Assembly (NCBI RefSeq): GCF_024223415.1
Contig: NZ_CP100500.1
Length of the DNA: 64,000 nt
Source: Escherichia coli
GTDB lineage: Bacteria > Pseudomonadota > Gammaproteobacteria > Enterobacterales > Enterobacteriaceae
Direction: 5' to 3' (one strand)
The notes beneath the pieces were generated by a model. The model made no database searches, was not told where the DNA came from, and saw only the letters and a list, made by a program, of their open reading frames with translations. The translations under genes and the position numbers were made by a program. Positions 22,323-34,906 of the stretch are shown here, piece by piece (the stretch's first letter is position 1; each line of letters opens with the position of its first letter).

Positions 22323-22348
22323 AATTAACTACACCATTAACTACACCG
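22323..22348 (+). repeat. 26-bp island-internal direct repeat AATTAACTACACCATTAACTACACCG (itself a tandem ATTAACTACACC x2), left copy
   Basis: Identical copy at 33743-33768. Imperfect similarity extends about 50 bp further. Confidence 0.85.
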
Positions 22349-22645
22349 TTCGGCGCACTGTATGAAACAACGTGGAACAAATAGGCACAAGAAATATAAA
22401 GGCGGGTAATTTTAAGGGGGCGTTGCTGTCGATACGGGGATCCACATATCGAGATTGATACCTGGCTTTTTTTCCGGTTAACCTTTAATCAGGCTGGTGG
22501 GCTTTACCTGTTCTGTAGGAGTGGTCATTATGACCATTCAGCCAATGACCTTAATCAGAATTTTTCGCTAAAAAATGACGTTGGCCACGTCATCCGGAAA
22601 GCACAAAATCACGTCGATTTTTAATGGATGGTTAAACCGTCTTTT

Positions 22646-22681
22646 TGTCACGGTGTGTCACTGGTTGTCACGCTCTGTCAC
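22646..22681 (+). repeat. four TGTCAC motifs spaced exactly 10 bp apart
   Basis: TGTCAC starts at 22646, 22656, 22666 and 22676, so the copies are phased by one helical turn. Confidence 0.8.
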
Positions 22682-22693
22682 GATGTCCGGCCT

Positions 22694-23044
22694 CCTCACA
22701 TTGAGGATTGTGGAAGAATCAATGGGTTAGTCTTACTACCCAAACTACGGGTAGTTTCCGTAGTTTCATGGTCGAGTTGCAGATCTGCAACTCCCCCATC
22801 AACCACAGGCGAATTTCCGCCTTCGGTCATTCCTTAATCATCTGCGTAATCATAATGATTATTCAGCCACCTCAATTTTGAGGTTTGCTTTAAGTTCAGC
22901 GAGTTACCGCGCCGACTTCCTCAAATTGAGGTTTCCGAAAATATCAGTGGGTTAGCGATTAAGCTGACCATTAATTAAACTGCGAAAATTTCGTAGTTTG
23001 TGACTGTCTTTCAGGCAGCTTGTTATCAGTCCTCAGATGTGAGG
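22694..23044. promoter_or_regulatory. four dispersed palindromes CCTCA-N3/4-TGAGG
   Basis: Located at 22694-22706, 22870-22883, 22919-22931 and 23031-23044. A perfect 20-bp palindrome GAGTTGCAGATCTGCAACTC lies at 22774-22793. Confidence 0.7.
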
Positions 23045-23087
23045 GATGTAGCCAGCGCAATTTTGCGTTATCGGGAATATCAGCAAG

Positions 23088-23369
23088 TTACCGCCGTAAC
23101 CGTTCCGGCTTCTTCCACTGATAAGTGTTTTTCGCGCTCTCCTGATACATCGCCACGCGTCGACGGTATGCCAGCAACTCTAGTACTCTGATTCGTATGT
23201 CGCGCATATCCACGCCGTTAAGCTCAATACCATCACGGCGCATTACATCAGCAACAACACGCACGTAATTTTCGGCGATCACGCTGTCCGGCTGCGTGGC
23301 CTGTTCGTCATGCTGCTGGCTGATTCCGGTAACGCGGCGGATTAATCCCAGTAGTTCGGCTTCTGTCAT
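23088..23369 (-). CDS. hypothetical 93-aa satellite protein
   Basis: ATG preceded by GGGGGC. No family recognised. Lies just beyond the left cos copy. Confidence 0.55.
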   Translation of the reverse strand: MTEAELLGLIRRVTGISQQHDEQATQPDSVIAENYVRVVADVMRRDGIELNGVDMRDIRIRVLELLAYRRRVAMYQESAKNTYQWKKPERLRR

Positions 23370-23402
23370 TGTGCCCCCATCGCTCTGATAGTCTGGTGTC
23401 GT

Positions 23403-23466
23403 CGGGTCCTTCTGGAATTATGGCCCGTTACGGGGCGTCGACCTCGCGGTTTTTCGCTATTTATGA
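23403..23466 (+). repeat. lambda-type cosQ-cosN sequence, left copy (12-mer GGGCGTCGACCT at 23433-23444)
   Basis: CGGGTCCTT..GTTACGGGGCGTCGACCTCGCGGTTTTTCGCTATTTATGA matches the lambda cos junction ..GGGTCCTTTCCGG..GTTACG/GGGCGGCGACCT/CGCGGGTTTTCGCTATTTATGA (from memory). Confidence 0.8.
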
Positions 23467-23480
23467 GCTTTTTTAGAGGG

Positions 23481-23631
23481 AGGTTGTTGTTTAATTGTTT
23501 GTCATATCCATTTGATAACTAAGTAAAAATAAAGAGCAATACAACAACCTGATAGTGTTTTTTTGATGCTAAAAATAAAAAAATACTAATTGAATCAAAT
23601 AGTTTTAAAAAAATACGTGGTTGTTGTATTG
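23481..23631 (+). promoter_or_regulatory. cosB-like region: three GGTTGTTGT(A/T)TT sites in + - + orientation separated by A-tract DNA
   Basis: Sites at 23481-23497 (+), 23537-23550 (-) and 23618-23631 (+). Their order and orientation mirror lambda R3-R2-R1. Confidence 0.6.
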
Positions 23632-23661
23632 CGTATTTGATGGCGTAACAGAAAGTGATTT

Positions 23662-24102
23662 TTAACTTTGCTGTTCTGTAACGACTGATTGTTCCATGCT
23701 GGCACGGCGAACGCTTACGGCATGACGCCACCCAGCCAGAAAGCCAGCCATTTTATTTCGTGCCTTGCTCACATCTTCCGGTGAATAGCCGTAAATATGC
23801 AAACCTTCATCAAATCGCTGTTCTGTTTCTTCACTGAAATACTCGTCGCGCTCTGACGCAATCAACCTGGCAACCATAATCTTTTCCAGTGCGCTGGTTT
23901 CTCCGTGGTACTCAATAGCATCAAGATGGCTTTTACCCATGCACCAGAATAATGTGTGTCCGATGTGATAACCGCCGGACTTTCCGCGATCCGCATCAAG
24001 ATATGGCATGCCCTGTTTGGTCCATGCGCGAATAGTGGTTCTGTTGACCTTGAAATGTTCTGCTATTTCCTGCTGACTCACAAAACAAGCTTTATCAATC
24101 AT
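23662..24102 (-). CDS. Nu1-like winged-HTH protein (small-terminase N-domain homologue; candidate packaging-redirection protein)
   Basis: VSQQEIAEHFKVNRTTIRAWTKQGMPYL aligns with lambda Nu1 VNKKQLADIFGASIRTIQNWQEQGMPVL. The C-terminal half is unrelated to Nu1. Confidence 0.7.
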   Translation of the reverse strand: MIDKACFVSQQEIAEHFKVNRTTIRAWTKQGMPYLDADRGKSGGYHIGHTLFWCMGKSHLDAIEYHGETSALEKIMVARLIASERDEYFSEETEQRFDEGLHIYGYSPEDVSKARNKMAGFLAGWRHAVSVRRASMEQSVVTEQQS

Positions 24103-24169
24103 AATGTTACCTTAATCATGCGATTAAATGTTAATCAAGTGGTGGTGGTGTCACCTTCACGGAAAAACG

Positions 24170-24234
24170 TCATAAATAGCGAAAACGCGCGAGGTCGACG
24201 CCCCGTAACGGGTCCACATGCCGGAAAGGACCCG
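24170..24234 (-). repeat. lambda-type cosQ-cosN sequence, right copy, inverted (12-mer at 24192-24203)
   Basis: The reverse complement CGGGTCCTTTCCGGCATGTGGACCCGTTACGGGGCGTCGACCTCGCGCGTTTTCGCTATTTATGA matches the left copy and lambda cos. Confidence 0.8.
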
Positions 24235-24235
24235 C

Positions 24236-24258
24236 AAAAAAAGCCGGATTTCTCCGGC
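24236..24258 (-). terminator. intrinsic terminator after orf137
   Basis: On the minus strand, the GCCGGAGAAATCCGGC hairpin is followed by a U7 run, 7 nt after the stop codon. Confidence 0.8.
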
Positions 24259-24264
24259 CTTGTC

Positions 24265-24678
24265 TCAGATGGTTTTCAGTATGCGATCGATGTCGCCGTC
24301 ATCGCCCTGGTTTGTGCCATCGTATGCCATGCCAGCTGATACGGCTTTCGGGCTGTGCATGTCCATAAAGTTTTCAAAGGCTGAAGTAAGCTCTGGTGCA
24401 ACCTTCGGGCGTTCCTGCTCTATGGTCATGCTAAGGATGCTTTTAGCCGTACCAACATCGATACAAGGCACGTTAGCCATTGCACGTAACAGCGGCTGGT
24501 AGTCGTCAGATTCATGAAGCGCCATAATCGCATCAGCGCGCGGCTTGTCCTGTTCTTCCAGTTTGTTGAGTCGGTGTATGGCCTCGTAGGTTGATAAACC
24601 TCTGTCAGCCATTGCCCGCGCTTCGGCTTTAAATTTACTCGCCAGCGGTAGCTTCATGATACTTTCATTCGTTGCCAT
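24265..24678 (-). CDS. hypothetical 137-aa head-module protein
   Basis: Strong SD AGGGGGAA. Tightly packed after the decoration gene. No family recognised. Confidence 0.6.
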   Translation of the reverse strand: MATNESIMKLPLASKFKAEARAMADRGLSTYEAIHRLNKLEEQDKPRADAIMALHESDDYQPLLRAMANVPCIDVGTAKSILSMTIEQERPKVAPELTSAFENFMDMHSPKAVSAGMAYDGTNQGDDGDIDRILKTI

Positions 24679-24690
24679 CGTTCCCCCTGC

Positions 24691-25026
24691 TTATCGTGCC
24701 AGCGGCTGAACGGATACGCCGGAACCCGCAAAGGCGGCGCATTTTTTCGCATCGGTGTCGACGCTATCAGGCCAGTTAACGGCGGCAATATTGAATATCC
24801 CCGTTTTGTAACACTGTGCTGATTTCTGCTTTGACGTGTCCACGGGGTGCGAAGTCAGATAAACAGCTTTGCCAGATTCCTGACCATCCCACGCCTTAAA
24901 CTCGCCATTGTCTGCCAGCATCAGCGGGGTAAATTCCTGAATAACGCCAGCATCAGCGGCAAAATGTACCAGCGTCGTGGATACCTGCTGGCTGCCTGAA
25001 AATAACTCAATGTATGGAGCGTCCAT
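24691..25026 (-). CDS. head decoration protein, lambda gpD-like
   Basis: 111 aa. TPLMLADNGEFKAWDG and KKCAAFAGSGVSV align with gpD TPLMLDTSSRKLVAWDG and KKRTAFAGTAISIV. Confidence 0.8.
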   Translation of the reverse strand: MDAPYIELFSGSQQVSTTLVHFAADAGVIQEFTPLMLADNGEFKAWDGQESGKAVYLTSHPVDTSKQKSAQCYKTGIFNIAAVNWPDSVDTDAKKCAAFAGSGVSVQPLAR

Positions 25027-25037
25027 AGAATCCCCCG

Positions 25038-26093
25038 TTAAGCAATTTTGACGGTAACAAATTTGCGAATATCTGCCGGTACCGGCTGCGGTGCGCTGTG
25101 CGTCTGCACGTACTCAATCGCCGGATCGCCGTCCTCAATCCAGTTTTTCGGGTAGTACATGTTTTGCGTTGCGCCCGTTCTTACCGCTTCCTGATCCATA
25201 ATCGCACCATATGCCACCAGCCCTTTATTGTTGGTGTTACCCAGGACCAGCAAATCAGGCTCAAGGAAATATTTTTCGGTGCCGTCGCTGTCAGTGTATT
25301 TGCCGGAATAGACGATAAGGGCCAGATCACCAAGATAGCCTTTAAAGCTCACCACTTCGCCCAGGTTTTTACAGGCCAGCTCGGCGGCGGATTCTGACCC
25401 ACGGGAAAGATCGTACAGTTCACGGAATTTTTTAAAGCTGCGTAATGTGCGCCATACCTCACCGCCCATAATCATGACGTTGGCGGGGCAACCTGCCTGA
25501 TCAGCATAAAGCTCGATGTCATAGATTGGGTCGTGCATGTCTTTATCCTGCTGGGACCATTTTTTACCACTGGCCTGCTGTATGATGCAGTTTTCCGGTA
25601 TTTTCCAGTCGATTTCATAGCGTTCTATGCCTTCGCCCTCAATGATGTTTTTTCCGGTCGTTACCGCATTCACCGCCAGCCATTCAACACGCGCTTTAAT
25701 GGCGTTTACCTGGCGGCGCATGTTGCCAGTAATCAGGCGCATACGGCGATAGGTTGGGTCGTTAAGCTGTGCCGGATCTTCTCCAGCCATGCGCATGATG
25801 GTCTTTGTTGGATCGATTTCGTGCTTTGGCTTCATGTAGCCTGGTTTAATCGTGCTGGTTTCGTACCCTTTATCGCGCTGGACCTGACTACCCACCATAG
25901 GAGAACAGAACGCAGACATCGTAACCTCTTCAATGTCCAGGGTGTCCAGCATGATGTTTTGGGTGTTGAAGGTCGCCACGTTCGGGAAAAACAGCGTGGT
26001 AAACAGCGGACTAAATTTAAATTCCGAAATATCCCCGCGATTCAGGTACGCGAAAAGCTGGTTAGTTGTAAGTGCCGTTGCTTTGCCTGTCAT
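25038..26093 (-). CDS. major capsid protein, lambda gpE family
   Basis: 351 aa. KFSPLF, PGYMKPKHE, YPKNW and HSAP align with gpE KFDPLF, PGYVKPKHE, YPKNW and QSAP. SD GGAGGTG, with a TAATG overlap with the upstream ORF. Confidence 0.9.
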   Translation of the reverse strand: MTGKATALTTNQLFAYLNRGDISEFKFSPLFTTLFFPNVATFNTQNIMLDTLDIEEVTMSAFCSPMVGSQVQRDKGYETSTIKPGYMKPKHEIDPTKTIMRMAGEDPAQLNDPTYRRMRLITGNMRRQVNAIKARVEWLAVNAVTTGKNIIEGEGIERYEIDWKIPENCIIQQASGKKWSQQDKDMHDPIYDIELYADQAGCPANVMIMGGEVWRTLRSFKKFRELYDLSRGSESAAELACKNLGEVVSFKGYLGDLALIVYSGKYTDSDGTEKYFLEPDLLVLGNTNNKGLVAYGAIMDQEAVRTGATQNMYYPKNWIEDGDPAIEYVQTHSAPQPVPADIRKFVTVKIA

Positions 26094-26299
26094 TATTCAC
26101 CTCCGTGAACCTGATTGATACCCAGCGCCGCACGTAAATAGGTGCGCACCTGCCAGCCTGTTGACGGCTCAACCATCGCCAGCGGATCAAGTCCTGCCGC
26201 AATGCCTGCTTTTACATTCTGCTGGTGGCGTTCCTTGAGCGCCTCCACGATGTCGGGGCTTATGTAGACCGTCACCCCGCCTTTTTTCTCTTCTGCCAT
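26093..26299 (-). CDS. hypothetical 68-aa protein, first gene of the capsid operon
   Basis: Translationally coupled to the capsid gene. No family recognised. Confidence 0.55.
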   Translation of the reverse strand: MAEEKKGGVTVYISPDIVEALKERHQQNVKAGIAAGLDPLAMVEPSTGWQVRTYLRAALGINQVHGGE

Positions 26300-26332
26300 A
26301 GTCAGAAATTCCTCTTTGACTTAAAAAATCAT

Positions 26333-26383
26333 AACTGGATGTTCATCCAGTCCTGATTATAATCATGATTGCATTTTGTGCAA
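26333..26383 (-). promoter_or_regulatory. sigma70 promoter of the capsid operon (TTGCAC-16-TATAAT) with an overlapping LexA-like palindrome
   Basis: On the minus strand, the -35 is at 26378-26383 and the -10 at 26356-26361. AACTGGATGTTCATCCAGTC (26333-26352) has CTG-N10-CAG and starts 5 nt after the -10. Confidence 0.6.
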
Positions 26384-26466
26384 TAATGTTGAGTTGTGTT
26401 GCAAATTATGAAATGATTATCCCGATCATGTGTGTCAGTGCACCATAAAAAACCTCGTATACAAAA

Positions 26467-26504
26467 GCCCGATAAGCCCCCTGTGACCTTATCGGGCTTT
26501 TTTT
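26467..26504. terminator. hairpin GCCCGATAAG..CTTATCGGGC with T7 on the plus strand and UUUUGU on the minus strand (bidirectional)
   Basis: 10-bp stem flanked by A/T runs. Confidence 0.7.
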
Positions 26505-26510
26505 AGGCGT

Positions 26511-26532
26511 AAAAAAGCCGGATTGCTCCGGC
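26511..26532 (-). terminator. intrinsic terminator after the PerC-like gene
   Basis: On the minus strand, the GCCGGAGCAATCCGGC hairpin is followed by U6. Near-identical to the terminator at 24236-24258. Confidence 0.8.
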
Positions 26533-26539
26533 TGTGTGC

Positions 26540-26812
26540 TCACTTCTGCGGGTAGTTGCGCCATATTGCTTTGCCAATACCAGCTATCCCCATTTGTTTT
26601 TCAGTGCGATTAACTGACCTTTTCAGAGCGCCTAAATCATCCGGCGGCTCCGGTGGCCTCTGTGCCTTCCGTGAACATTCCAGCCGTCGCATTGCCACCT
26701 GTGCGCGTTCCTTGTCTGTCTCCACCAGCATCATCACTTCACCCCATCGCGCGGCCGCCCTCCGGTAAAATCCTTTCGCCTCCAGTTCCTCCGCTATCCG
26801 GTCATGTACCAT
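26540..26812 (-). CDS. PerC/Pch-family transcriptional activator-like protein
   Basis: 90 aa from MVHDRIAEELEAKGFYRRAAARWGEVM, with SD GAGGGGG. The motif resembles PerC-family A..LE..GLWRRAA.RW (from memory). Confidence 0.55.
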   Translation of the reverse strand: MVHDRIAEELEAKGFYRRAAARWGEVMMLVETDKERAQVAMRRLECSRKAQRPPEPPDDLGALKRSVNRTEKQMGIAGIGKAIWRNYPQK

Positions 26813-26822
26813 CGTCACCCCC

Positions 26823-27233
26823 TCAGAACGGAATATCATCACCGTAAGGGTCATCGCCTCCCGCTGGTGGCTGATTACCCTGTGTGCCTGTGGTTTTGCG
26901 TCTGTTCCCGCCAGGACGTGCCGCACGGGCACTGATTACGCTGTCTGCGATGACCTGCCAGCCCTGCCGCGTTTCGCCGTTCTGGCCTGTCCACTGGCTT
27001 ACCTGCATGTTACCCGCCACGCTCACCAGTTCGCCTTTGTGGTGTCTGGCCAGTGCGTCGGCCTGTCTGCCAAACGCCAGGACGGATAACCACATCGTCG
27101 CCGTTCCGTCATCTGCCTGGCTGCATGGCAGGGGAACCGCCATACTCGCCATCGCCATTTGTGTCCCTTTGCTGGTCTGTTTTGTCTGCGGGTCGTCCAC
27201 CAGCCGCCCGTAAGCCGCTATCTGTGCTGTCAT
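26823..27233 (-). CDS. ssb: single-stranded DNA-binding protein
   Basis: 136 aa with an OB-fold-like N-terminus, a Gly/Pro-rich linker and the canonical acidic tip DDIPF. Confidence 0.85.
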   Translation of the reverse strand: MTAQIAAYGRLVDDPQTKQTSKGTQMAMASMAVPLPCSQADDGTATMWLSVLAFGRQADALARHHKGELVSVAGNMQVSQWTGQNGETRQGWQVIADSVISARAARPGGNRRKTTGTQGNQPPAGGDDPYGDDIPF

Positions 27234-27487
27234 GCTGTCTGCTCTCCGGTTTTAACATTGATGGTTGTCACCTGTTCCGCTCCGGCAATCTCCCGCTCTG
27301 TCAGCGTGGCAAAGTTTGCCGCCGTCGTTGTCATGAATGCGCTTATCAGTTCGGGATGTGCTTTCGCGTATCCTTCCCCCGTGTTGCGGTCGATGATTTT
27401 TATCGCCACCCTCAGCCAGTGCTCTGTAAGGTCAATGGCGCGGTTATGTGATTTCTTCTGATTGTTAAATTTTTCTGATGTGTGCAT
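27230..27487 (-). CDS. hypothetical 85-aa protein
   Basis: ATGA overlap with the ssb start. No family recognised. Confidence 0.5.
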   Translation of the reverse strand: MHTSEKFNNQKKSHNRAIDLTEHWLRVAIKIIDRNTGEGYAKAHPELISAFMTTTAANFATLTEREIAGAEQVTTINVKTGEQTA

Positions 27488-27534
27488 TTTTATTTTTACC
27501 CCCTCGTTTAAAAAGTTTTGAGTTGTGGTGCACC

Positions 27535-27760
27535 TCCTCTACCTCTCTACACAATCATCTTTCAGGTCAGTAATGGCGCGGCTTTCAGCGGGGTAGAGGG
27601 CTTTTTTGGCCCTCTACCCGCCATCTACCACCCCCTCACAAATGCCCTGAATTATGGTAGAGGGTGTAGAGGGCTTTTAAGTACCTTCTACCTGCCATCC
27701 ACCCAATCTATCCACATGAAATATATGTAATTATTTTCTTAAGGTAGAAGGGGTAGAGGG
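27535..27760. repeat. iteron array, at least 10 copies of (G/T)GTAGA(G/A)GG in both orientations; candidate satellite replication origin
   Basis: Includes GGGTAGAGGGC-ttttttg-GCCCTCTACCC (27590-27618), GGTAGAGGGTGTAGAGGGC (27655-27673) and GGTAGAAGGGGTAGAGGGC (27742-27760). Lies directly downstream of the primase-helicase gene. Confidence 0.7.
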
Positions 27761-27773
27761 CTTTTGTCTAAAA

Positions 27774-29522
27774 CTATAAAAACGCGTCGCAGTCGTCTGT
27801 TGTTGTCACGTTGGTTTGCGTAAACCCTTTAATCCTGCGCGTTATATATTCATGACCGTAAACTTTCGCCGCTGGCTTCATGGCCTTGCTGAACTCAGCC
27901 ACGTTCAGCGGTTTGCTCCTGCCTGCATACGCCATAAACGCCAGATAGACGCGGTAAAGGCTGTTTCTGGTCGTGTACTTCACTGAATCGCCACCGCCGC
28001 CCATCATCAGGCCACGTGCTTCCTCCAGAAAATTCAGGAACTGGCAAAACTCAATAACCGGATCCGTCTGTTGCTTTATTGCCAGAGCTTCATCACCGTC
28101 TCGCTGTTCAATGAGTAAAGCCCGTGCCTTTTCAGGGTCGGCAAAGTTCGCCAGCAAGCGGCGGATAATGACAGGGATTTCAGCCGCGATCTTTTCCGGT
28201 AGCTCCCTGTCTTTTTCTGCCTCGCTTACGATGTTATCGAACCGGAATATCACCCGACGACGTGACACGCCTCCTGCCCGTTCGGTGAATATCATCGGGT
28301 TATTATTGGTTGCCAGCACAACCGCCCTGATTACCGCCGTGAATCGCTTTTCATATTTCGGGTTGATTTCCACGGGGTCGCCGCCCGTGATTTTCTTGAT
28401 GCCCGTTCCTTCGCCTGTATATTTCGGCTGGTCTGCCAGGACAATAAGCCTACTCCCGACAACCTGCGCACGCCCACCAGCATCATCAAGCGATGTCATC
28501 TCAGCGCTTACCGTGTTCTGTTTCCCTGCCAGAAGGCTGGCTATGTGTGTGAATGTACTTTTACCGCTCCCGCCGTCTCCGGTGGCCTCAATAAACATCT
28601 GCCAGTCGTACCGGTTCGCCATAATCATGTACAGCGCGGCACATATACGCATCATCTTGCGCGGGTCTTTTCCGGCAGCGTGATCAAGCCATTTATGAAA
28701 GTTTGGCGCGTTGTCGCGGATATTCTCACCTGGTACTGGCGGCGTGTACTCAATGCCGTTGTGTGTGGTGATCCAGTTCTCCGGCGTGTGCGGGGAAAAT
28801 TCCCCCGTTTTCAGGTCAAGCGCACCATTGGCGAACGGCAGCAAATCGCCGGACGGCTCGCCCATTGGTTCGGCAATAACTTTTAACGCTTCCACGGCGT
28901 TACTGATTACGCGCTTGCTGAAAGTGGCCCTGTGCTCTGAATAGATCGCCACCATTTCGCGGCTCAGTTCCATTGTGCTGACCGGACACCATACCCCGCC
29001 GCGCCATACGTGAACGATTTCACTTTCCAGATGCACACAAACGCCATCAAATCGACCAGCAAGCATCTGTGCGCGCTCACTGTCTGCCATTTGTGCCAGT
29101 TGCGTATTTTTCTGCTCCGGCATGGTAAGCCCTGCGGCAATATTTTCACGCTCAGCATTCAGATAGCGCCGCCAGTTTTCACACTTCTGACCGTGCATTC
29201 CTTCAGAGTAAAAATTCGCATCCTGAATATCTGCCGCCGCCAGCTTCTGACCAATCTTTTTGGTCTCCACTAAATCCAGTTCTCCGGCCTGGTACAGCCT
29301 TACGCGTTTTTTTCCATCCGGAACAATTTTCAGCGCATCAAGTTCAGCAAGCTGATTTGGCCCAAGCCACACAGGCGGCACATTATCGCCGGATGCGGGA
29401 CCGTCCTTCTCCTGCCACTGTTGTGCATGCGACCAGGCATCACTACCCGCAAAGATAATTACCTCTGTGTCTTTGTGTTTTATTCCGCGTGGCTGTTTTT
29501 TTACGTTCGGTGCCAGTTTCAT
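27774..29522 (-). CDS. P4-alpha-type primase/SF3 helicase (replication initiator)
   Basis: 582 aa with Walker A GDGGSGKST and a D5_N/P4-family C-terminal layout. Confidence 0.85.
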   Translation of the reverse strand: MKLAPNVKKQPRGIKHKDTEVIIFAGSDAWSHAQQWQEKDGPASGDNVPPVWLGPNQLAELDALKIVPDGKKRVRLYQAGELDLVETKKIGQKLAAADIQDANFYSEGMHGQKCENWRRYLNAERENIAAGLTMPEQKNTQLAQMADSERAQMLAGRFDGVCVHLESEIVHVWRGGVWCPVSTMELSREMVAIYSEHRATFSKRVISNAVEALKVIAEPMGEPSGDLLPFANGALDLKTGEFSPHTPENWITTHNGIEYTPPVPGENIRDNAPNFHKWLDHAAGKDPRKMMRICAALYMIMANRYDWQMFIEATGDGGSGKSTFTHIASLLAGKQNTVSAEMTSLDDAGGRAQVVGSRLIVLADQPKYTGEGTGIKKITGGDPVEINPKYEKRFTAVIRAVVLATNNNPMIFTERAGGVSRRRVIFRFDNIVSEAEKDRELPEKIAAEIPVIIRRLLANFADPEKARALLIEQRDGDEALAIKQQTDPVIEFCQFLNFLEEARGLMMGGGGDSVKYTTRNSLYRVYLAFMAYAGRSKPLNVAEFSKAMKPAAKVYGHEYITRRIKGFTQTNVTTTDDCDAFL

Positions 29523-29818
29523 TTTTTACCCCTGAATACGTTAAGCATCTTTTTTATTTCCTGAATATTGGCGCGTGCTTTCTCCCTGCTGGTTGGTTTA
29601 CTGCGGGGCGCTGCCTGTACCAGAGAAAAATCACGCCGGAACTGATAAACAGGCATCACGCAATCATATTCGTAGCCTTCACGGCGGTAAGTGATGCGCC
29701 GTTCCTCCACGCCTTTAATCGTTACCGTGCCGCCGTACTGGTCGCGGTAAATATCGCCGTTCATAAATTCAGGCCGAGCGGGGCCGCTGGCATTAACGCC
29801 AGTATTTTTCATTCCCAT
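29519..29818 (-). CDS. hypothetical 99-aa protein
   Basis: ATGA overlap with the primase start. Basic C-terminus. Confidence 0.55.
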   Translation of the reverse strand: MGMKNTGVNASGPARPEFMNGDIYRDQYGGTVTIKGVEERRITYRREGYEYDCVMPVYQFRRDFSLVQAAPRSKPTSREKARANIQEIKKMLNVFRGKK

Positions 29819-29822
29819 ATAA

Positions 29823-30065
29823 TTAAATTCCGTTTGTGTGGTGTTTTAATTCGTCAATTTTTTCTAATGCTTTGTTTATCTTGCTGGTGGAAATATCCAG
29901 CAATTCAGAAATAGCAAATATAAGTCTTGCCGTTGATTCATCTCTTTCGTTGTTTGACAGCAATTGAAACCACACGTTTGTAATTTCAATTGCCGAATTA
30001 TTATAGGTTATTGCACTGTTCATGTATTCCGACACCTCTGCAAGCGAAAGTTTATTATTCTCCAT
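29823..30065 (-). CDS. hypothetical 80-aa protein (AT-rich)
   Basis: Predicted helical, with markedly lower GC than its neighbours. Confidence 0.5.
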   Translation of the reverse strand: MENNKLSLAEVSEYMNSAITYNNSAIEITNVWFQLLSNNERDESTARLIFAISELLDISTSKINKALEKIDELKHHTNGI

Positions 30066-30246
30066 AACGTTCTACCCTCTCATCAATTAACCACAGTGCA
30101 ACACTTCCTGACAGTCTTGCCAGAAGGCCAGCTAATGCGGATATATCATCATCATTTAATTTATTAGGGTACGCTTCAAGAAGTCTGCAAATAATTTCGG
30201 TTTGGTGGGCGCGTTCAGCGGCTTCGTGTAATGTAATTTCCTTCAT
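30055..30246 (-). CDS. hypothetical 63-aa protein (AT-rich)
   Basis: Overlaps the next ORF by 11 nt. Confidence 0.5.
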   Translation of the reverse strand: MKEITLHEAAERAHQTEIICRLLEAYPNKLNDDDISALAGLLARLSGSVALWLIDERVERYGE

Positions 30247-30431
30247 TAATGCACCTCTTTTAATTCATACACTGCTGAAATAATGACTTGTGATAAGCCA
30301 TATTCTGATGATTCGCTTCTCACCGCAGCAATAGCCGTCTGAACATTAACAGCCTTCACATTCTGAGCGATACCAATTGTGTGGCCTAGTGGGTTAACAG
30401 CTCGGGCAAATACACGGAAGGTTTTAAGCAT
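30246..30431 (-). CDS. hypothetical 61-aa protein
   Basis: Its start overlaps the upstream stop, and its own stop overlaps the next start by 1 nt. Confidence 0.5.
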   Translation of the reverse strand: MLKTFRVFARAVNPLGHTIGIAQNVKAVNVQTAIAAVRSESSEYGLSQVIISAVYELKEVH

Positions 30432-30789
30432 GGCGCACCCCCTGAATAACCTGATATCCGCAACTGGTCAGCAATTCGATAAATTCCGGCAGAGTGCCAA
30501 AACAGCAATCAGTGCGTAGCTGTTCGCAGGATACCTCAACGCCGTTTTCGTAATGGCTCACTATGCGCCCGGTAAAATGCGGATCATCATCGTGATGGCA
30601 CGTTGACGGTTTCATCAGCCGCGCGCGTTCCGCCAGTTCCAGCAATGCTTCAACGCTTCCGGCAATTGCACCATCCGGCAGGTGATAATTACTTACTACG
30701 CGTCCATTCTCTACATTGACCAGTAGCTGTCCGGTAAATTTCTCACGAAACTGAACGCGGTTAAGATCGGTAAGTGACAGGTTAATCAT
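30424..30789 (-). CDS. hypothetical 121-aa protein
   Basis: Start MINLSLTDLNR, chosen because ATGATTAA overlaps the upstream stop codon. Confidence 0.55.
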   Translation of the reverse strand: MINLSLTDLNRVQFREKFTGQLLVNVENGRVVSNYHLPDGAIAGSVEALLELAERARLMKPSTCHHDDDPHFTGRIVSHYENGVEVSCEQLRTDCCFGTLPEFIELLTSCGYQVIQGVRHA

Positions 30790-30979
30790 GGCACACCTCC
30801 TGACGAATACGGGCGGCGAATACAGCGACACAACCGGACGGGCAACGGTTACGCGCTTCGCGTTCTGTCCAGGCGGTCACGTGGATAATTTGAGATTCTC
30901 CGGCACTCAGTGCCAGAAAACGCCACACAAAGGCGGTTTGTGTGTGCGCAAGGCGTGGGGTATGCTGTGTTCCAGCCAT
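30782..30979 (-). CDS. small Icd-like (P4-family cell-division-inhibitor-like) protein
   Basis: 65 aa MAGTQHTPRLAHTQTAFVWRFLALS...TEREARNRC...FAARIRQE, with SD GAGGT. The family call is from memory of P4-like prophage annotations. Confidence 0.4.
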   Translation of the reverse strand: MAGTQHTPRLAHTQTAFVWRFLALSAGESQIIHVTAWTEREARNRCPSGCVAVFAARIRQEVCHD

Positions 30980-31070
30980 AATCGTTACCTCAATTAATGG
31001 TTTGGTTAGAAGCCCGTTGGTGTTCATAGCGCCAGCGGGCTTTGTCTTTTCATCGATTACCTCAATAAAG

Positions 31071-31151
31071 GTGTCAGCCACTATACTAGTAACAGGTGTC
31101 AGCCACGTCAATAGTGTTTTTCCATTTTCTTGTGTGTATACTGTCAGCCAC
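31071..31151. promoter_or_regulatory. divergent control region with three (G/C)TGTCAGCCAC repeats interleaved with TATACT -10-like hexamers
   Basis: Copies at 31071-31081, 31096-31106 and 31141-31151. TATACT at 31082-31087 and 31137-31142. Confidence 0.65.
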
Positions 31152-31172
31152 CTAATAACAAGGAAATCAGAT

Positions 31173-31352
31173 ATGGCAACGAAAGCAGTTAATGGAAAAT
31201 CCAAAAAACTTGAGGCACGAGTCCCCCATGCAATAGCTGACGCTTTAGAAAATTTAAAGGAAGAAGGCGAAAGCACTGGGCAATTTATCGTTTCGGCACT
31301 TGAAGGCGAGATCAAACGCCGCCAGCGCCGGAAGGCCAAAGAATCAGAATAA
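31173..31352 (+). CDS. ribbon-helix-helix (Arc/MetJ/CopG-like) DNA-binding protein, candidate satellite repressor
   Basis: 59 aa. KKLEARVPHAIADALENLKEEGESTGQFIVSALEGEIKRRQ fits a beta-strand/helix/helix pattern. Divergent from the early operon. Confidence 0.6.
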   Translation: MATKAVNGKSKKLEARVPHAIADALENLKEEGESTGQFIVSALEGEIKRRQRRKAKESE

Positions 31353-31409
31353 TCACTATCAGCGCCGTGGTGTGAGGTACTGCGGCGCATTGTTTTAAAG
31401 GTGATAATT

Positions 31410-31601
31410 ATGAATAACCAAGAACTACAAAATAAAGCATTATCAATTATCATGCGCCAGCGTGAGAAAACCCGCAGGGAAATAAATAAGGCATTAACCC
31501 GCACTGAAAATCTTAAAGTTCCTGATAAGTTCGCCCTTGATCCTTTTGTCGAGAAATACCCTCGGCGCTTAAAAGCAAACAAAAACCGCCCACCTGGCTG
31601 A
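31410..31601 (+). CDS. hypothetical 63-aa basic protein
   Basis: ATG with SD AAGGTG. Followed by an intrinsic terminator. Confidence 0.5.
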   Translation: MNNQELQNKALSIIMRQREKTRREINKALTRTENLKVPDKFALDPFVEKYPRRLKANKNRPPG

Positions 31602-31635
31602 CAATCCACCAGCAAGCCAGGACACTGATCACATT

Positions 31636-31663
31636 GGCCACCGTGACAGGTGGCCTTTTCTTT
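31636..31663 (+). terminator. intrinsic terminator of the rhh operon
   Basis: GGCCACC-gtgaca-GGTGGCC followed by TTTTCTTT. Confidence 0.8.
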
Positions 31664-31716
31664 GCCCGTTATCCGGCAATTGTGGCGCTTCGCCACACGG
31701 TTGATATAATCCCACT

Positions 31717-31787
31717 GCTCATATTCATTTTTTGCGCAGTAGGTTAATTGTTCAGAAAGGCGGCTCCTTATCGGGGCCGCTTTTTTT
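31717..31787 (+). ncRNA. candidate ~70-nt small RNA, antisense to the alpA-early operon transcript
   Basis: An extended -10 TGATATAAT (31702-31710) lies upstream of an 8-bp-stem hairpin plus T7 (31760-31787). There is no credible plus-strand CDS between them. Confidence 0.35.
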
Positions 31788-31928
31788 ATGTCTGAAAAAC
31801 CGCGATTTTGTTGTTTTTCAGTTTCACAAGGCCGAACGAAGCCCCGCCCCTGTTCGGGCGTATATCCAGTCTTCATGGTTAAATCTCTGTATTAGTGGAT
31901 GGGTGGCGGCTGTGTGCCGCCAGTCTTT

Positions 31929-32117
31929 TTAGTGAACTGCCTCGCAGCTTTCCTTCCATGCCAGAACTTCGGATAAAGACCAGCCAACGGAACGACCGCC
32001 CAGCTTACGCCGTGATGGGAATTGTCCGGCCTTTTCCAGGCGGTAGCGGCATGAGCGGCTAAGCCCTGTTAGCTTTTCGCATTCTTTTTCACGTATAAAC
32101 CGATCAGTGCTTAACAC
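31929..32117 (-). CDS. alpA: AlpA-family HTH regulator/excisionase-like protein
   Basis: 62 aa, GTG start with SD AAAGGGGG. The LTGLSRSCRYRLEKAGQFPSRRKLGGRSVGWSLSEVLAW motif is typical of AlpA. Confidence 0.85.
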   Translation of the reverse strand: MLSTDRFIREKECEKLTGLSRSCRYRLEKAGQFPSRRKLGGRSVGWSLSEVLAWKESCEAVH

Positions 32118-32409
32118 TATTGCCCCCTTTCGTTTCTTAAAGAGTTATTTCGTGTTCTATTGCGTTGGTATGTGTCTGATTGTGTCAGGGTGATTCAGAG
32201 TTGGCAAATGTTGGTGGCGGGTATTTTACAGAAACGGGGTTATTTTAATAAAAAACATTTTAATTCAGTATTATGCAAAGGCATAAAATCTCGTTTTATG
32301 CCTTTTTTCTCACTATTTAAAGCGTTATTCGCTAATGTATAAAAAACCAGTTGAGCATTAAAAATCAGCAACTTATAAATCTGTATACTTTTTGGCCTCT
32401 TGTTCGTGG

Positions 32410-32443
32410 TTGTTTCACGTTGTTGCGTATTGTTTCACGTTGT
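32410..32443 (+). repeat. two direct copies of TTGTTTCACGTTGT, 20 bp apart
   Basis: The same 13-mer family occurs inverted near both island ends (22364-22379 and 33787-33800). Confidence 0.75.
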
Positions 32444-32491
32444 ATCTGTGCACTTATCCAGTATGCGCATACTGAAAAAACACGAAAAAAA

Positions 32492-33742
32492 TTATTTTCT
32501 TCTGGTTACTGGTAGCGTGGTTACGTTTTCATGTGCTCCCGCCAGTATCTCCAACCGCTCCACCCACATATCCAGCGCATTGCGTTTCGCATCCAGATAA
32601 CGGGAATGATTATAAACTCGCTGCATTCCTGGCATCTGGTGGCCTGTAAGCTGCTCCACGACGTGAGGATCCACGCCTAAATCGTTCAGCATCGTTGTAA
32701 AGGTGCGCCGGATGTCATGCAGTGACCAGTGAGGGTGTTTAAGCCTCCTGTGCGCTAATCTTCCATACTGCGATACGCTGGCCTCCTGTTTCACTTCCCC
32801 CAGCAATAAGCCCGTGTGCCTGTTCTGCTCCACCAGCTGCGTGACGAACGGCAGTATCGCTTCCGGTATGGGCCGGAATATGGCTACCTTCGTTTTGCTG
32901 TGCTCCTTCGGAACGGTCCATAGCATTTCGGTAAAATCCCACTCCCCGATCTCCGATAGCCTCAGTTCTACTGTCCTGGCTCCGAAGACAATCAGGAGGC
33001 GGATTAGTGCGACGTAGTAAGGGGAAAATATTTTTTTGTCCAGTGCCTGCAATAATTCGCCAAGTTCTTTGTTACTTAAGACACGCTGACTTATATCCGG
33101 TTTTTTCCCAACGTCAGCAACACTCATATCATCAAGAACGTTGCTGATTGCATAGCGCCGCTTCCGGCAGAACTTAAGCGCCTGTTTGCATGTCTGTAGC
33201 AGGAATCCGGCGGAAACAGGGGCTTGCTTTGCCACCCGATCAAAACAGGCCAGCCAGTGCCGTAGCTCGCATTTATCCAGCGGCATAGCACCAATCTGCT
33301 GTATTACGTGATTATTAAGTCGCCTTTTCAGGGCGATATAATCCACGCGGTTTTCCTTTACGTAATACTCAAGCCAGTAGGTAAGCGCATCGCCAACCGT
33401 TACAGGCTTTAACGCTTCCTGTACGGTGTAATTCATCTCATGACGTGGATTTTTCCCCTCAGCCAGCCATGCGCGGCACTGTGCGGCTTTTTCCCTGGCT
33501 GCTTTCAGGCTCAGATCAGGATAATTTCCCAGCTTAATCCGTTCCGGTCGTGCTCCCCTTCCCGTTCCGGCCCTGTAGGTGAAATACCAGGTTAAAAGGC
33601 CGCTGGTTGAATGCCTGACGGTCAGGTTTCCACCGTCATTAAGAAAGACTGTTTTTTGGGCGGGTGTGCCGTTGATTTTCCTTAGCTGTGTATCGCTCAG
33701 TTTGTTAAGTGCTCTGCGCATAATTTTGATTCCGGTCATCAC
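32492..33742 (-). CDS. int: P4-family tyrosine integrase
   Basis: About 410 aa with catalytic HDIRRT...GH...Y motifs. Adjacent to the right attachment site. The start is ambiguous (GTG 33742, ATG 33739 or the ATG of MRRALNKL). Confidence 0.9.
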   Translation of the reverse strand: MMTGIKIMRRALNKLSDTQLRKINGTPAQKTVFLNDGGNLTVRHSTSGLLTWYFTYRAGTGRGARPERIKLGNYPDLSLKAAREKAAQCRAWLAEGKNPRHEMNYTVQEALKPVTVGDALTYWLEYYVKENRVDYIALKRRLNNHVIQQIGAMPLDKCELRHWLACFDRVAKQAPVSAGFLLQTCKQALKFCRKRRYAISNVLDDMSVADVGKKPDISQRVLSNKELGELLQALDKKIFSPYYVALIRLLIVFGARTVELRLSEIGEWDFTEMLWTVPKEHSKTKVAIFRPIPEAILPFVTQLVEQNRHTGLLLGEVKQEASVSQYGRLAHRRLKHPHWSLHDIRRTFTTMLNDLGVDPHVVEQLTGHQMPGMQRVYNHSRYLDAKRNALDMWVERLEILAGAHENVTTLPVTRRK

Positions 33743-33768
33743 AATTAACTACACCATTAACTACACCG
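33743..33768 (+). repeat. right copy of the 26-bp repeat, immediately upstream of the integrase start
   Basis: Identical to 22323-22348. Candidate integrase arm-type or RDF binding site. Confidence 0.85.
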
Positions 33769-33890
33769 ATCGTTGCACAAAGGGCTACAACGTGAAACAA
33801 GCTGGAACAAGAAAAATCACAAATTTGTTTATAATCAAAAACATAATGCACAACCTGAAACATTATGAAACGGCAAAAAACACTAATTGA

Positions 33891-34679: not shown

Positions 34680-34721
34680 GTCATACCACTCGCCTGATTA
34701 TTTTTAGCTATGTTGGATTTT

Positions 34722-34748
34722 GCCACGGTTTATACCGTGGCTTTTTTT
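34722..34748 (+). terminator. intrinsic terminator after allE
   Basis: GCCACGG-tttata-CCGTGGC followed by T7. Confidence 0.8.
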
Positions 34749-34756
34749 GTAACATT

Positions 34757-34785
34757 GCCTGATGCGCTTCGCTTATCAGGCCTAC
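34757..34785. repeat. REP element
   Basis: GCCTGATGCGCTTCGCTTATCAGGCCTAC. Confidence 0.85.
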
Positions 34786-34906
34786 ATGATCTCTGCAATA
34801 TATAGAATTTGCGCGATTTTCAGGAAGGATATAGTGCTCATGCAGCATCCGGCATGAGCACTGCGCTCTTATACGAAATAAATCGCATCCGCTTTAAAGG
34901 TAAGGG

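Follow-up and report, generated by a model that had tools for sequence, protein, structure and literature searches.

The immI region of phage P22 contains the ribbon-helix-helix (RHH) repressors Mnt and Arc, the sar antisense RNA and ant. For the Gram-negative phage-inducible chromosomal islands (PICIs), helper-phage induction and transfer were published for EcCICFT073, for which it was shown that AlpA is an activator necessary for transfer, that helper phages raise alpA transcription and that over-expression of AlpA alone, with no helper, leads to excision and runaway replication (PMC6092414). The 2018 paper that defined the Gram-negative PICIs described the global repressor as unclear and the inducer as unidentified (PMC6092414), and immunity RNAs of the CI type were placed in the variable zone following alpA, a protein repressor not being mentioned (PMC10111431). 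Here, we describe a candidate switch in a stretch of 64,000 nt of Escherichia coli DNA (64 kb of contig NZ_CP100500.1, assembly GCF_024223415.1; "the window" in the following means this whole stretch), located in an island which by its gene content is a Gram-negative PICI of the EcCICFT073 type. A 59-aa RHH protein is encoded divergently from the early operon of the island across three short repeats. We consider it likely that this is an RHH repressor/operator specificity cassette controlling the early operon, supplemented by an antisense-RNA layer and bypassed via AlpA, and the RHH protein is probably the silencer of the early genes that had been missing for these islands.

Among the described systems, P22 immI appears to be the closest in logic: here as there, a small RHH repressor is encoded divergently from the operon it silences or, in the window, would silence, with operators on face-to-face promoters and with self-regulation, and a short cis-antisense RNA with its own terminator lies over the ribosome site of the controlled gene. 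The immunity regions of P4 (CI RNA, seqA/seqC) and P1/P7 (immI with the c4 RNA, icd and ant) share with the island the slot between an alpA/vis homologue and the primase operon and an Icd/Kil-like first gene whose translation start is targeted, in the window putatively, by a small RNA. However, the P4 CI and P1 c4 RNAs are cut from the sense leader and act in the same transcript, whereas the RNA in the window lies on the opposite strand, and P4, unlike the island, has neither a protein repressor nor operators at PLE. The equivalence to the P4 immunity region that an earlier reading of the letters of this DNA alone (the sequence-only reading) had proposed holds loosely: there is no RNA of the C4/CI type, and a different cis-antisense RNA is present instead. 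As for Stl and Rpr of the Staphylococcus aureus pathogenicity islands and the Gram-positive PICIs, the regulator is likewise divergent from the early (xis-pri-rep) operon, in the window with operators in the shared spacer, and a role in maintenance is presumed. However, Stl is a large helix-turn-helix (HTH) protein with an inducer-binding part, encoded co-directionally with int and removed by helper proteins (PMC6092414), whereas the window encodes a 59-aa RHH protein in the direction opposite to int.

The spacer between the start codon of the icd-like first early gene (30979, minus strand) and that of the RHH gene (31173, plus strand) comprises 193 bp, the length that the sequence-only reading had given; the rightward 59-aa RHH gene it had named is present, its start being corrected from 31174 to 31173. 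The three repeats (operators O1 to O3, Table 1), the TATACT hexamers adjoining them at 31082-31087 and 31137-31142 and a leftward promoter TTGACG-17-TAGTAT with the middle repeat in its spacer (PL) had also been pointed out and were all recovered, PL being the sole promoter-like site called by a promoter scan in the spacer (9 of 12 matches). The 10-mer TGTCAGCCAC occurs at 31072, 31097 and 31142 and has no further exact copy on either strand of the whole window; allowing one mismatch, 12 matches were found in the 64 kb compared to 3.1 expected, a number reached by none of 100 shuffles. O1 and O2 are spaced by 25 bp, O2 and O3 by 45 bp, and O3 carries CTG instead of GTG as its left arm.

A scan of one genome per species resulted in the identification of 66 related loci in Enterobacterales, 63 of which have enough upstream sequence for comparison. 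The 10-mer that each locus carries at O3 recurs upstream at least once in 60 of 63 loci and at least twice in 56. Counted from the RHH start codon, sites are found at -31 in all loci, at about -76 in nearly all and at about -100 or -111, the O1-equivalent being present in 56 of 63 loci at a distance of 22-27 or 35-37 bp from O2 and in either orientation. The sites have the form GTG-N5-CAC, in which the outer triplets are constant and the N5 core differs by lineage. In several lineages the O3 core departs from the core of O1 and O2, which together with the CTG left arm suggests that O3 is the weaker of the predicted sites. The promoters are kept with the sites: a -35 element TTGAnn of PL directly after O2 is present in 58 of 58 loci, O2 always being followed by (N)TCAA, in 56 of 58 loci this is followed by a PL -10 element TAnnnT at a spacing of 17-18 nt, and directly adjoining O3, 55 of 58 loci have a TAnnnT hexamer (exactly TATACT in 43). 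As O1 and O2 sit on the spacer and start of PL and O3 on the -10 element and start of PR, the promoter of the RHH gene, occupancy of O1/O2 would repress the early operon and occupancy of O3 the RHH gene itself.

Moreover, the operators covary with the protein. The 21 beta-strand types found in the family map nearly one-to-one onto operator cores. As examples, KKLEARV goes with the core TCAGC, KRFDVRV with TCGGA or TCCGA, LQVSVRL with AACAC, QQLNARF with AATCG, QMTTVRI with AAATA, and both QSLKSRV and QALKARV with TGGCC. Residue 14 is the most informative on the operator core (0.72 of its entropy), with residues 12 and 13 coming next; the analogy with Arc places strand residues 12, 14 and 16 on the side facing the DNA. 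The distance between operators correlates with the distance between beta-strands (r = 0.78-0.87), and the partial Mantel correlation of operator and strand given the rest of the protein is r = 0.51, none of 2000 permutations being as high. Since the arrangement of three sites persists while their core varies in concert with strand residues 12-14, it is strongly supported by this comparison that the repeats act as operators of the RHH protein and control the early operon.

Direct repeats in the neighbourhood of alpA and int could also serve recombination or replication, as sites of AlpA, as arm-type sites of the integrase or as origin iterons of the primase, and P4 does have origin repeats near its regulatory region. 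However, the operator type does not track these proteins (AlpA r = 0.25, Int 0.28, Pri -0.10), 49 pairs of loci combine near-identical AlpA with different operators, and better candidates for such sites exist elsewhere in the island, namely the repeats by the primase gene and by both attachment (att) ends described below. Sites of AlpA, Int or the primase were rejected as an explanation of the repeats for want of covariation with operator type, and we give this explanation practically no chance.

The repressor and its operators also appear to travel together. Compared to an island of E. coli Ch1, the DNA of the window is about 100% identical at 30450-30950 and at 31300-32200 and only 62-76% identical at about 31000-31300 (L001 9300-9600 in Ch1); the Icd-like proteins of the two islands are 100% identical and the RHH proteins 66%. 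The divergent segment of Ch1 carries other operators (GTGTGGCCCAC) and another strand (QALKARV). Because near-identical flanks enclose divergent operators and a divergent strand, the comparison indicates that the operators are exchanged together with the DNA-reading part of the RHH protein in a single cassette, much like in the immunity regions of phages. The right edge of the cassette coincides with the invariant C-terminal coding part of the RHH gene. In nine genomes that contain two to four islands, giving 16 within-genome pairs, no pair of the same type was found compared to 2.4 expected (P = 0.06), which is only suggestive of co-resident islands avoiding the same specificity type. In the island of E. 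coli Rb-3 (L071 3781-4093), the position between icd and alpA is taken by a 59-aa protein that is unrelated, has no Pfam match and shows an Arc-like pattern at its N-terminus. It adjoins a 133-bp spacer with four TGTAAT(G)/CATTACA sites, and the hairpins of the antisense RNA are again present; different small repressors can apparently be accommodated in this slot.

The RHH protein matches the NCBIfam model NF041551 (YlcI/YnfO N-terminal domain) over residues 9-50 with 62.1 bits (cut-off 30; E = 3.6e-17) and also matches phrog_949. An AlphaFold2 model based on an alignment of 25 relatives (predicted local distance difference test, pLDDT, 87) shows an extended segment (residues 10-18) and two helices (19-28 and 35-58), i.e., the strand-helix-helix topology of about 45 residues that the RHH superfamily requires. 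In the strand K12-L13-E14-A15-R16-V17-P18, R16 is invariant and P18 nearly invariant in the alignment of relatives; the pattern was compared with that of Arc, in which alternating polar and hydrophobic strand residues end in R-hydrophobic-P. The turn G32-E33-S34-T35 preceding helix 2 is nearly invariant as well and follows the usual RHH pattern. That the protein acts as an RHH dimer with a two-stranded sheet in the major groove is suggested only by the covariation between the operator core and strand residues 12-14. The 59 residues leave no further (sensor) domain, and the family is small, with 89 cluster representatives among 1.84 billion. Its namesakes in E. coli K-12, YlcI of the prophage DLP12 and YnfO of Qin, share the NF041551 N-terminal domain with the protein of the window; YlcI in addition matches Pfam DUF3950, which the RHH protein of the window does not, and ylcI (L069 4752-5340) is divergent from nohD across the cos region at the end of the cryptic lambdoid prophage DLP12. 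The literature searched on YlcI and YnfO describes no function for either, and a blastn search of 30780-31420 against 50,697 phage records gave no match. The C-terminal motif G-E-I-K-R-R-Q-R-(K/R) at residues 45-53 (31305-31331) is kept across all specificity classes, E46-R52 being present in 25 of 25 members and G45 in most; it might serve oligomerisation, contact to the DNA backbone or docking of a partner.

Next to the RHH protein and its operators, a cis-antisense RNA is predicted between icd and O1. Its hairpin 1 is complementary to the ribosome site and start codon of icd, and hairpin 2 together with the T-run has the form of an intrinsic terminator; a 79-nt version from the window folds with z = -7.4. 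In all 61 distinct loci, folding is more favourable for the plus strand than for the minus strand (means of -41.2 versus -29.3 kcal/mol). In an alignment of 36 loci, 97.3% of the cells are paired and 15 of 21 pairs show compensatory changes, a support that 0 of 500 shuffles reach and to which slid registers do not come close. As G-U pairs far outnumber A-C pairs (100 versus 7), the structured RNA is placed on the plus strand, with which the covariation agrees. In the candidate -10 element TATGCT, nine bases upstream of hairpin 1, the T at positions 1 and 6 is invariant across loci and conservation of the A at position 2 reaches at least 90%, whereas positions 3-5 are variable. The base at position 2 coincides with the wobble position of codon 6 of icd, and because this codon is CAT, TCT or AGT depending on the locus and varies around a kept wobble base, the constraint acts on the DNA and not on the protein. 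The RNA would have a promoter of its own and block the translation of icd.

Rfam searches returned no match in the switch region, neither at gathering scores over the whole window nor at E <= 10 over 30300-32600, and a covariance model of the RNA matched only the copies of the window, Ch1 and CFT073 and none in the P4 or DLP12 region. A relationship to P4 CI or P1 c4 (Rfam C4, isrK) was rejected, as there is no Rfam match and the RNA described here is on the antisense strand; a comparison by eye with the P4 PLE/cI region revealed no resemblance. Within icd codons 12-19, a terminator-like hairpin with T-run is present on the sense strand (30924-30944, minus), its T-run consisting of the conserved W-R-F codons, at a position reminiscent of where transcription ends early in P4 immunity. 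A plus-strand open reading frame (ORF) overlapping icd (30788-30997; phrog_4106, 4.7e-37) was rejected as a shadow of the icd-like gene, the minus frame being the better conserved of the two in 13 of 13 loci; the phrog_4106 family may consist of mis-called ORFs. Furthermore, an open frame of 364 codons (30782-31876, minus) continues in frame with icd, antisense through the spacer, the RHH gene and orf63, and in CFT073 (L068 9680-10153) the RefSeq "Icd-like" gene has 157 aa and overlaps the YlcI/YnfO gene, which is probably an over-extended gene call.

An Icd-like product held by an antisense RNA also raises the question of toxin control, i.e., a toxin silenced in a type I-like manner by the RNA and transcriptionally by the RHH protein, serving stabilisation of the island or abortive infection and not control of its life cycle. 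However, PL is predicted to drive DUF4222 and the primase as well (overlapping or abutting frames), so that control reaches replication; there is no PADLOC family match, and the specificity classes and the exchange of the cassette fit an immunity function. As an explanation of the switch, toxin control seems quite improbable to us; a role of the icd-RNA pair in toxin control would not conflict with repression of the early operon by the RHH protein.

Several observations weigh against the RHH protein as the repressor of the early operon. The window protein has no Pfam match at E <= 1, the Pfam RHH models included, and only one of 25 relatives touches Pfam RHH_1, at 0.009; a profile search of the PDB by sequence gave noise only. 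Because curated RHH models and PDB sequences give no match, membership in the RHH (Arc/MetJ/CopG) superfamily rests on the modelled fold and the motifs. PR has a poor -35 element in the window and was not called by the promoter scan. A partial correlation of 0.35 persists between the operator and the rest of the protein, and as the operators adjoin the gene, some of the covariation reflects shared descent. Furthermore, the heptads of Omega (pSM19035) and the element of CopG (pMV158) are contiguous and bound cooperatively. In contrast to these well-studied RHH operators, the units in the present family are 22-45 bp apart (45 bp between O2 and O3) and O1 is inverted in 22 of 53 loci; the description of the sites as tandem direct repeats bound by dimers of dimers is not supported at these spacings and orientations. 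A YlcI/YnfO gene and the same module of three sites (GTGTGGCCCAC twice, CTGTCCCCCAC once) are also found in the CFT073 island, which is presumably EcCICFT073. The RHH protein is not an absolute lock, since over-expression of AlpA alone induces EcCICFT073 (PMC6092414), and would at most be a lock that AlpA can open.

The last point also bears on how the island would be induced. In an Stl-like scheme, the RHH protein would silence the whole island and a helper-phage protein would bind and remove it. The divergent arrangement of the RHH gene and the early operon with operators on PL is in line with this scheme, as are the C-terminal GEIKRRQR, which is invariant in all specificity classes and could be a common docking site of an inducer, and the published state of the Gram-negative PICIs with an unclear global repressor and an inducer not identified (PMC6092414). 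However, the CFT073 island has the same module and EcCICFT073 is induced by AlpA without a helper, the 59-aa protein lacks a separate sensor domain, and Stl is an HTH protein co-directional with int (PMC6092414), whereas the RHH gene is opposite to it. We therefore regard the Stl-like scheme as unlikely. The sequence-only reading had spoken of a master repressor/operator set, equivalent to Stl and hence the point where a helper signal must act. The comparative evidence strongly supports an RHH protein with operators at the early operon; the equivalence to Stl is not supported, given the size, fold class and orientation of the protein and induction running through AlpA, and neither is the claim on the helper signal, since the CFT073 island shares the module and helper phages raise alpA transcription of EcCICFT073 (PMC6092414).

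The preferred reading, repression of the early operon by the RHH protein, may be put together as follows. RHH dimers would bind the three 11-bp GTG-N5-CAC sites, the invariant outer triplets being read by invariant residues, of which R16 is the likeliest candidate, and the N5 core by the variable outward-facing strand residues 12 and 14. O1 and O2 bracket the PL -10 element and O2 touches the -35 element, and their occupancy would block the early operon from the icd-like gene to the primase, while O3 on the -10/+1 region of PR, with its degenerate left arm, would let the RHH protein limit its own synthesis. Operators, promoters and the DNA-reading part of the protein would move between islands as a unit, in at least 14 specificity classes. 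In a second layer, a constitutive antisense RNA of about 77 nt would pair with the icd ribosome site and start codon and silence leaky transcripts. Induction would probably not require a helper protein to inactivate the repressor: the helper would raise alpA transcription, and AlpA-dependent leftward transcription, or AlpA itself, would override or bypass the control at PL. In P4, a late upstream promoter reads through and overrides immunity (summarised in PMC10111431), and by analogy, transcription from the alpA promoter might extend into the early operon here.

The arrangement of alpA can be set beside this proposal. In 42 of 66 loci, alpA follows downstream of the RHH gene; in the window it is leftward, with 580 bp between it and the stop codon of the RHH gene to its left. 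The intrinsic terminators in this interval act on the plus strand only, and a weak minus-strand terminator candidate (31228-31211) is found inside the variable, strand-coding part of the RHH gene. A further step would be to regard the RHH-operator cassette and the antisense RNA as the missing immunity of Gram-negative PICIs, EcCICFT073 included, with at least 14 exchangeable specificities defining immunity or incompatibility groups among co-resident islands, and with helper induction through AlpA-driven transcription that runs against the repressor gene, through the operators and into the early operon, and not through removal of the repressor. In this full form the proposal is tentative, and we hold it to be possible but less likely than not.

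The kind of switch as such is a known one, a small autoregulated RHH repressor at divergent promoters. The literature searched on YlcI/YnfO, on PICIs together with ribbon-helix-helix and on Icd-like proteins together with antisense RNA does not describe the module; nor does it seem to contain a description of the protein family, of the place of this family in Gram-negative PICIs, of exchangeable specificity classes or of the antisense RNA. A concrete protein, three sites and an antisense RNA can now be named in the immunity zone following alpA, and the question of what silences Gram-negative PICIs becomes directly testable, since the module is shared by the CFT073 island, which is presumably EcCICFT073 and as such experimentally tractable. 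Moreover, a series of 59-aa repressors in which residues 12-14 track a 5-bp core offers a ready recognition table for RHH-DNA specificity and is a possible source of orthogonal repressor/operator pairs.

Table 1. Features of the switch region and its surroundings in window coordinates; promoter, operator, RNA and terminator functions are predicted.
Feature	Position	Strand	Description
O1, GTGTCAGCCAC	31071-31081	+	just downstream of PL -10, covers predicted PL start (~31076)
O2, GTGTCAGCCAC	31096-31106	+	within PL spacer, touches PL -35
O3, CTGTCAGCCAC	31141-31151	+	overlaps last base of PR -10 and predicted PR start (~31149)
PL, leftward early-operon promoter	31111-31083	-	TTGACG (31111-31106), 17 nt, TAGTAT (31088-31083)
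PR -10 of RHH gene	31137-31142	+	TATACT, abuts O3; conserved among loci
RHH-protein gene	31173-31352	+	59 aa, YlcI/YnfO family, predicted repressor
Candidate exchangeable specificity cassette	~31000-31300		RNA terminator hairpin, O1-O3, both promoters, RHH beta-strand and helix A
Cis-antisense RNA, ~77 nt	30974-31050	+	two hairpins, then T-run; between icd and O1
Candidate antisense-RNA -10	30961-30966	+	TATGCT, inside icd codons 5-7
icd-like gene, first early gene	30782-30979	-	65 aa; NCBIfam NF033153 (Icd-like cell-division inhibitor), 64.9 bits
Early/replication operon	27774-30979	-	icd-like, four small ORFs, DUF4222, P4-type primase
Terminator-like hairpin and T-run	31362-31397	+	just after RHH stop codon
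orf63	31410-31601	+	63 aa, downstream of RHH gene; accessory, outside conserved module
Terminators	31636-31665 and 31904-31930	+	first after orf63; would shield alpA from rightward transcription
alpA	31929-32117	-	published Gram-negative PICI activator; Pfam Phage_AlpA 5e-18; convergent with RHH cassette, co-directional with early operon
Integrase	32492-33742	-	

The island itself measures 11.4 kb (about 22323-33768) and is bounded by 26-bp direct repeats AATTAACTACACCATTAACTACACCG at 22323-22348 and 33743-33768 between allC and ylbA. It encodes an integrase, alpA, a P4-type primase (D5_N/DUF5906), SSB and, as its only phage structural genes, a lambda-E-type capsid protein, a decoration protein and a connector-like gene; all these genes are leftward except for the 59-aa RHH gene and the 63-aa ORF that follows it. 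The features by which Gram-negative PICIs are recognised, i.e., int, alpA and primase in one direction, a size of about 10-15 kb, att repeats and no genes for tail or lysis, are all found, and the gene order matches that of the islands in E. coli Ch1 and CFT073 (phoQ-roxA).

The 63-aa ORF, orf63, invites the reading of a type II toxin-antitoxin pair, with the RHH protein as antitoxin, orf63 as toxin and the repeats as autoregulatory operator. However, a homologue of orf63 is present in 0 of 66 related loci, where mostly the RHH gene stands alone with a convergent alpA directly after it, and a terminator-like hairpin separates the two genes in the window. Moreover, orf63 has no family match (toxin families, PADLOC included), and two of the three sites lie on the opposite promoter. 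The pair was rejected as orf63 is not conserved, and we consider it very unlikely. PADLOC returned nothing meaningful.

Some smaller features accompany these genes. The motif TTACCTCAAT(T/A)AA occurs twice, at 30985-30997 and 31057-31069, the region of the icd ribosome site being repeated at the 5' end of the PL leader; in many other loci an inverted repeat CCTTGA...TCAAGG abuts O1 in place of this duplicate. At about 31752-31780, inspection by eye revealed a further hairpin with T-run, which is not among the calls of the scan. Directly following alpA, a short ORF begins at 31877 and runs leftward; CFT073 has a longer, unannotated equivalent, which might be what remains of a gene of the Bro type. 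GGGGTAGAGGGCTTTT is present three times (27590-27765) immediately downstream of the primase gene, at spacings of 73 and 87 bp, and these copies are likely iterons of a replication origin. TTGTTTCACGTTGT occurs twice between int and alpA (32410-32443) and inverted beside both att repeats (33787-33800 and 22367-22380), with no copy near PL; these are likely arm-type sites of the integrase or sites of AlpA/excisionase. Outside the island, between ylbA and glxK, Rfam matches to the enterobacterial small RNAs STnc480 and ES036 were found at 34686-34820 on the minus strand.

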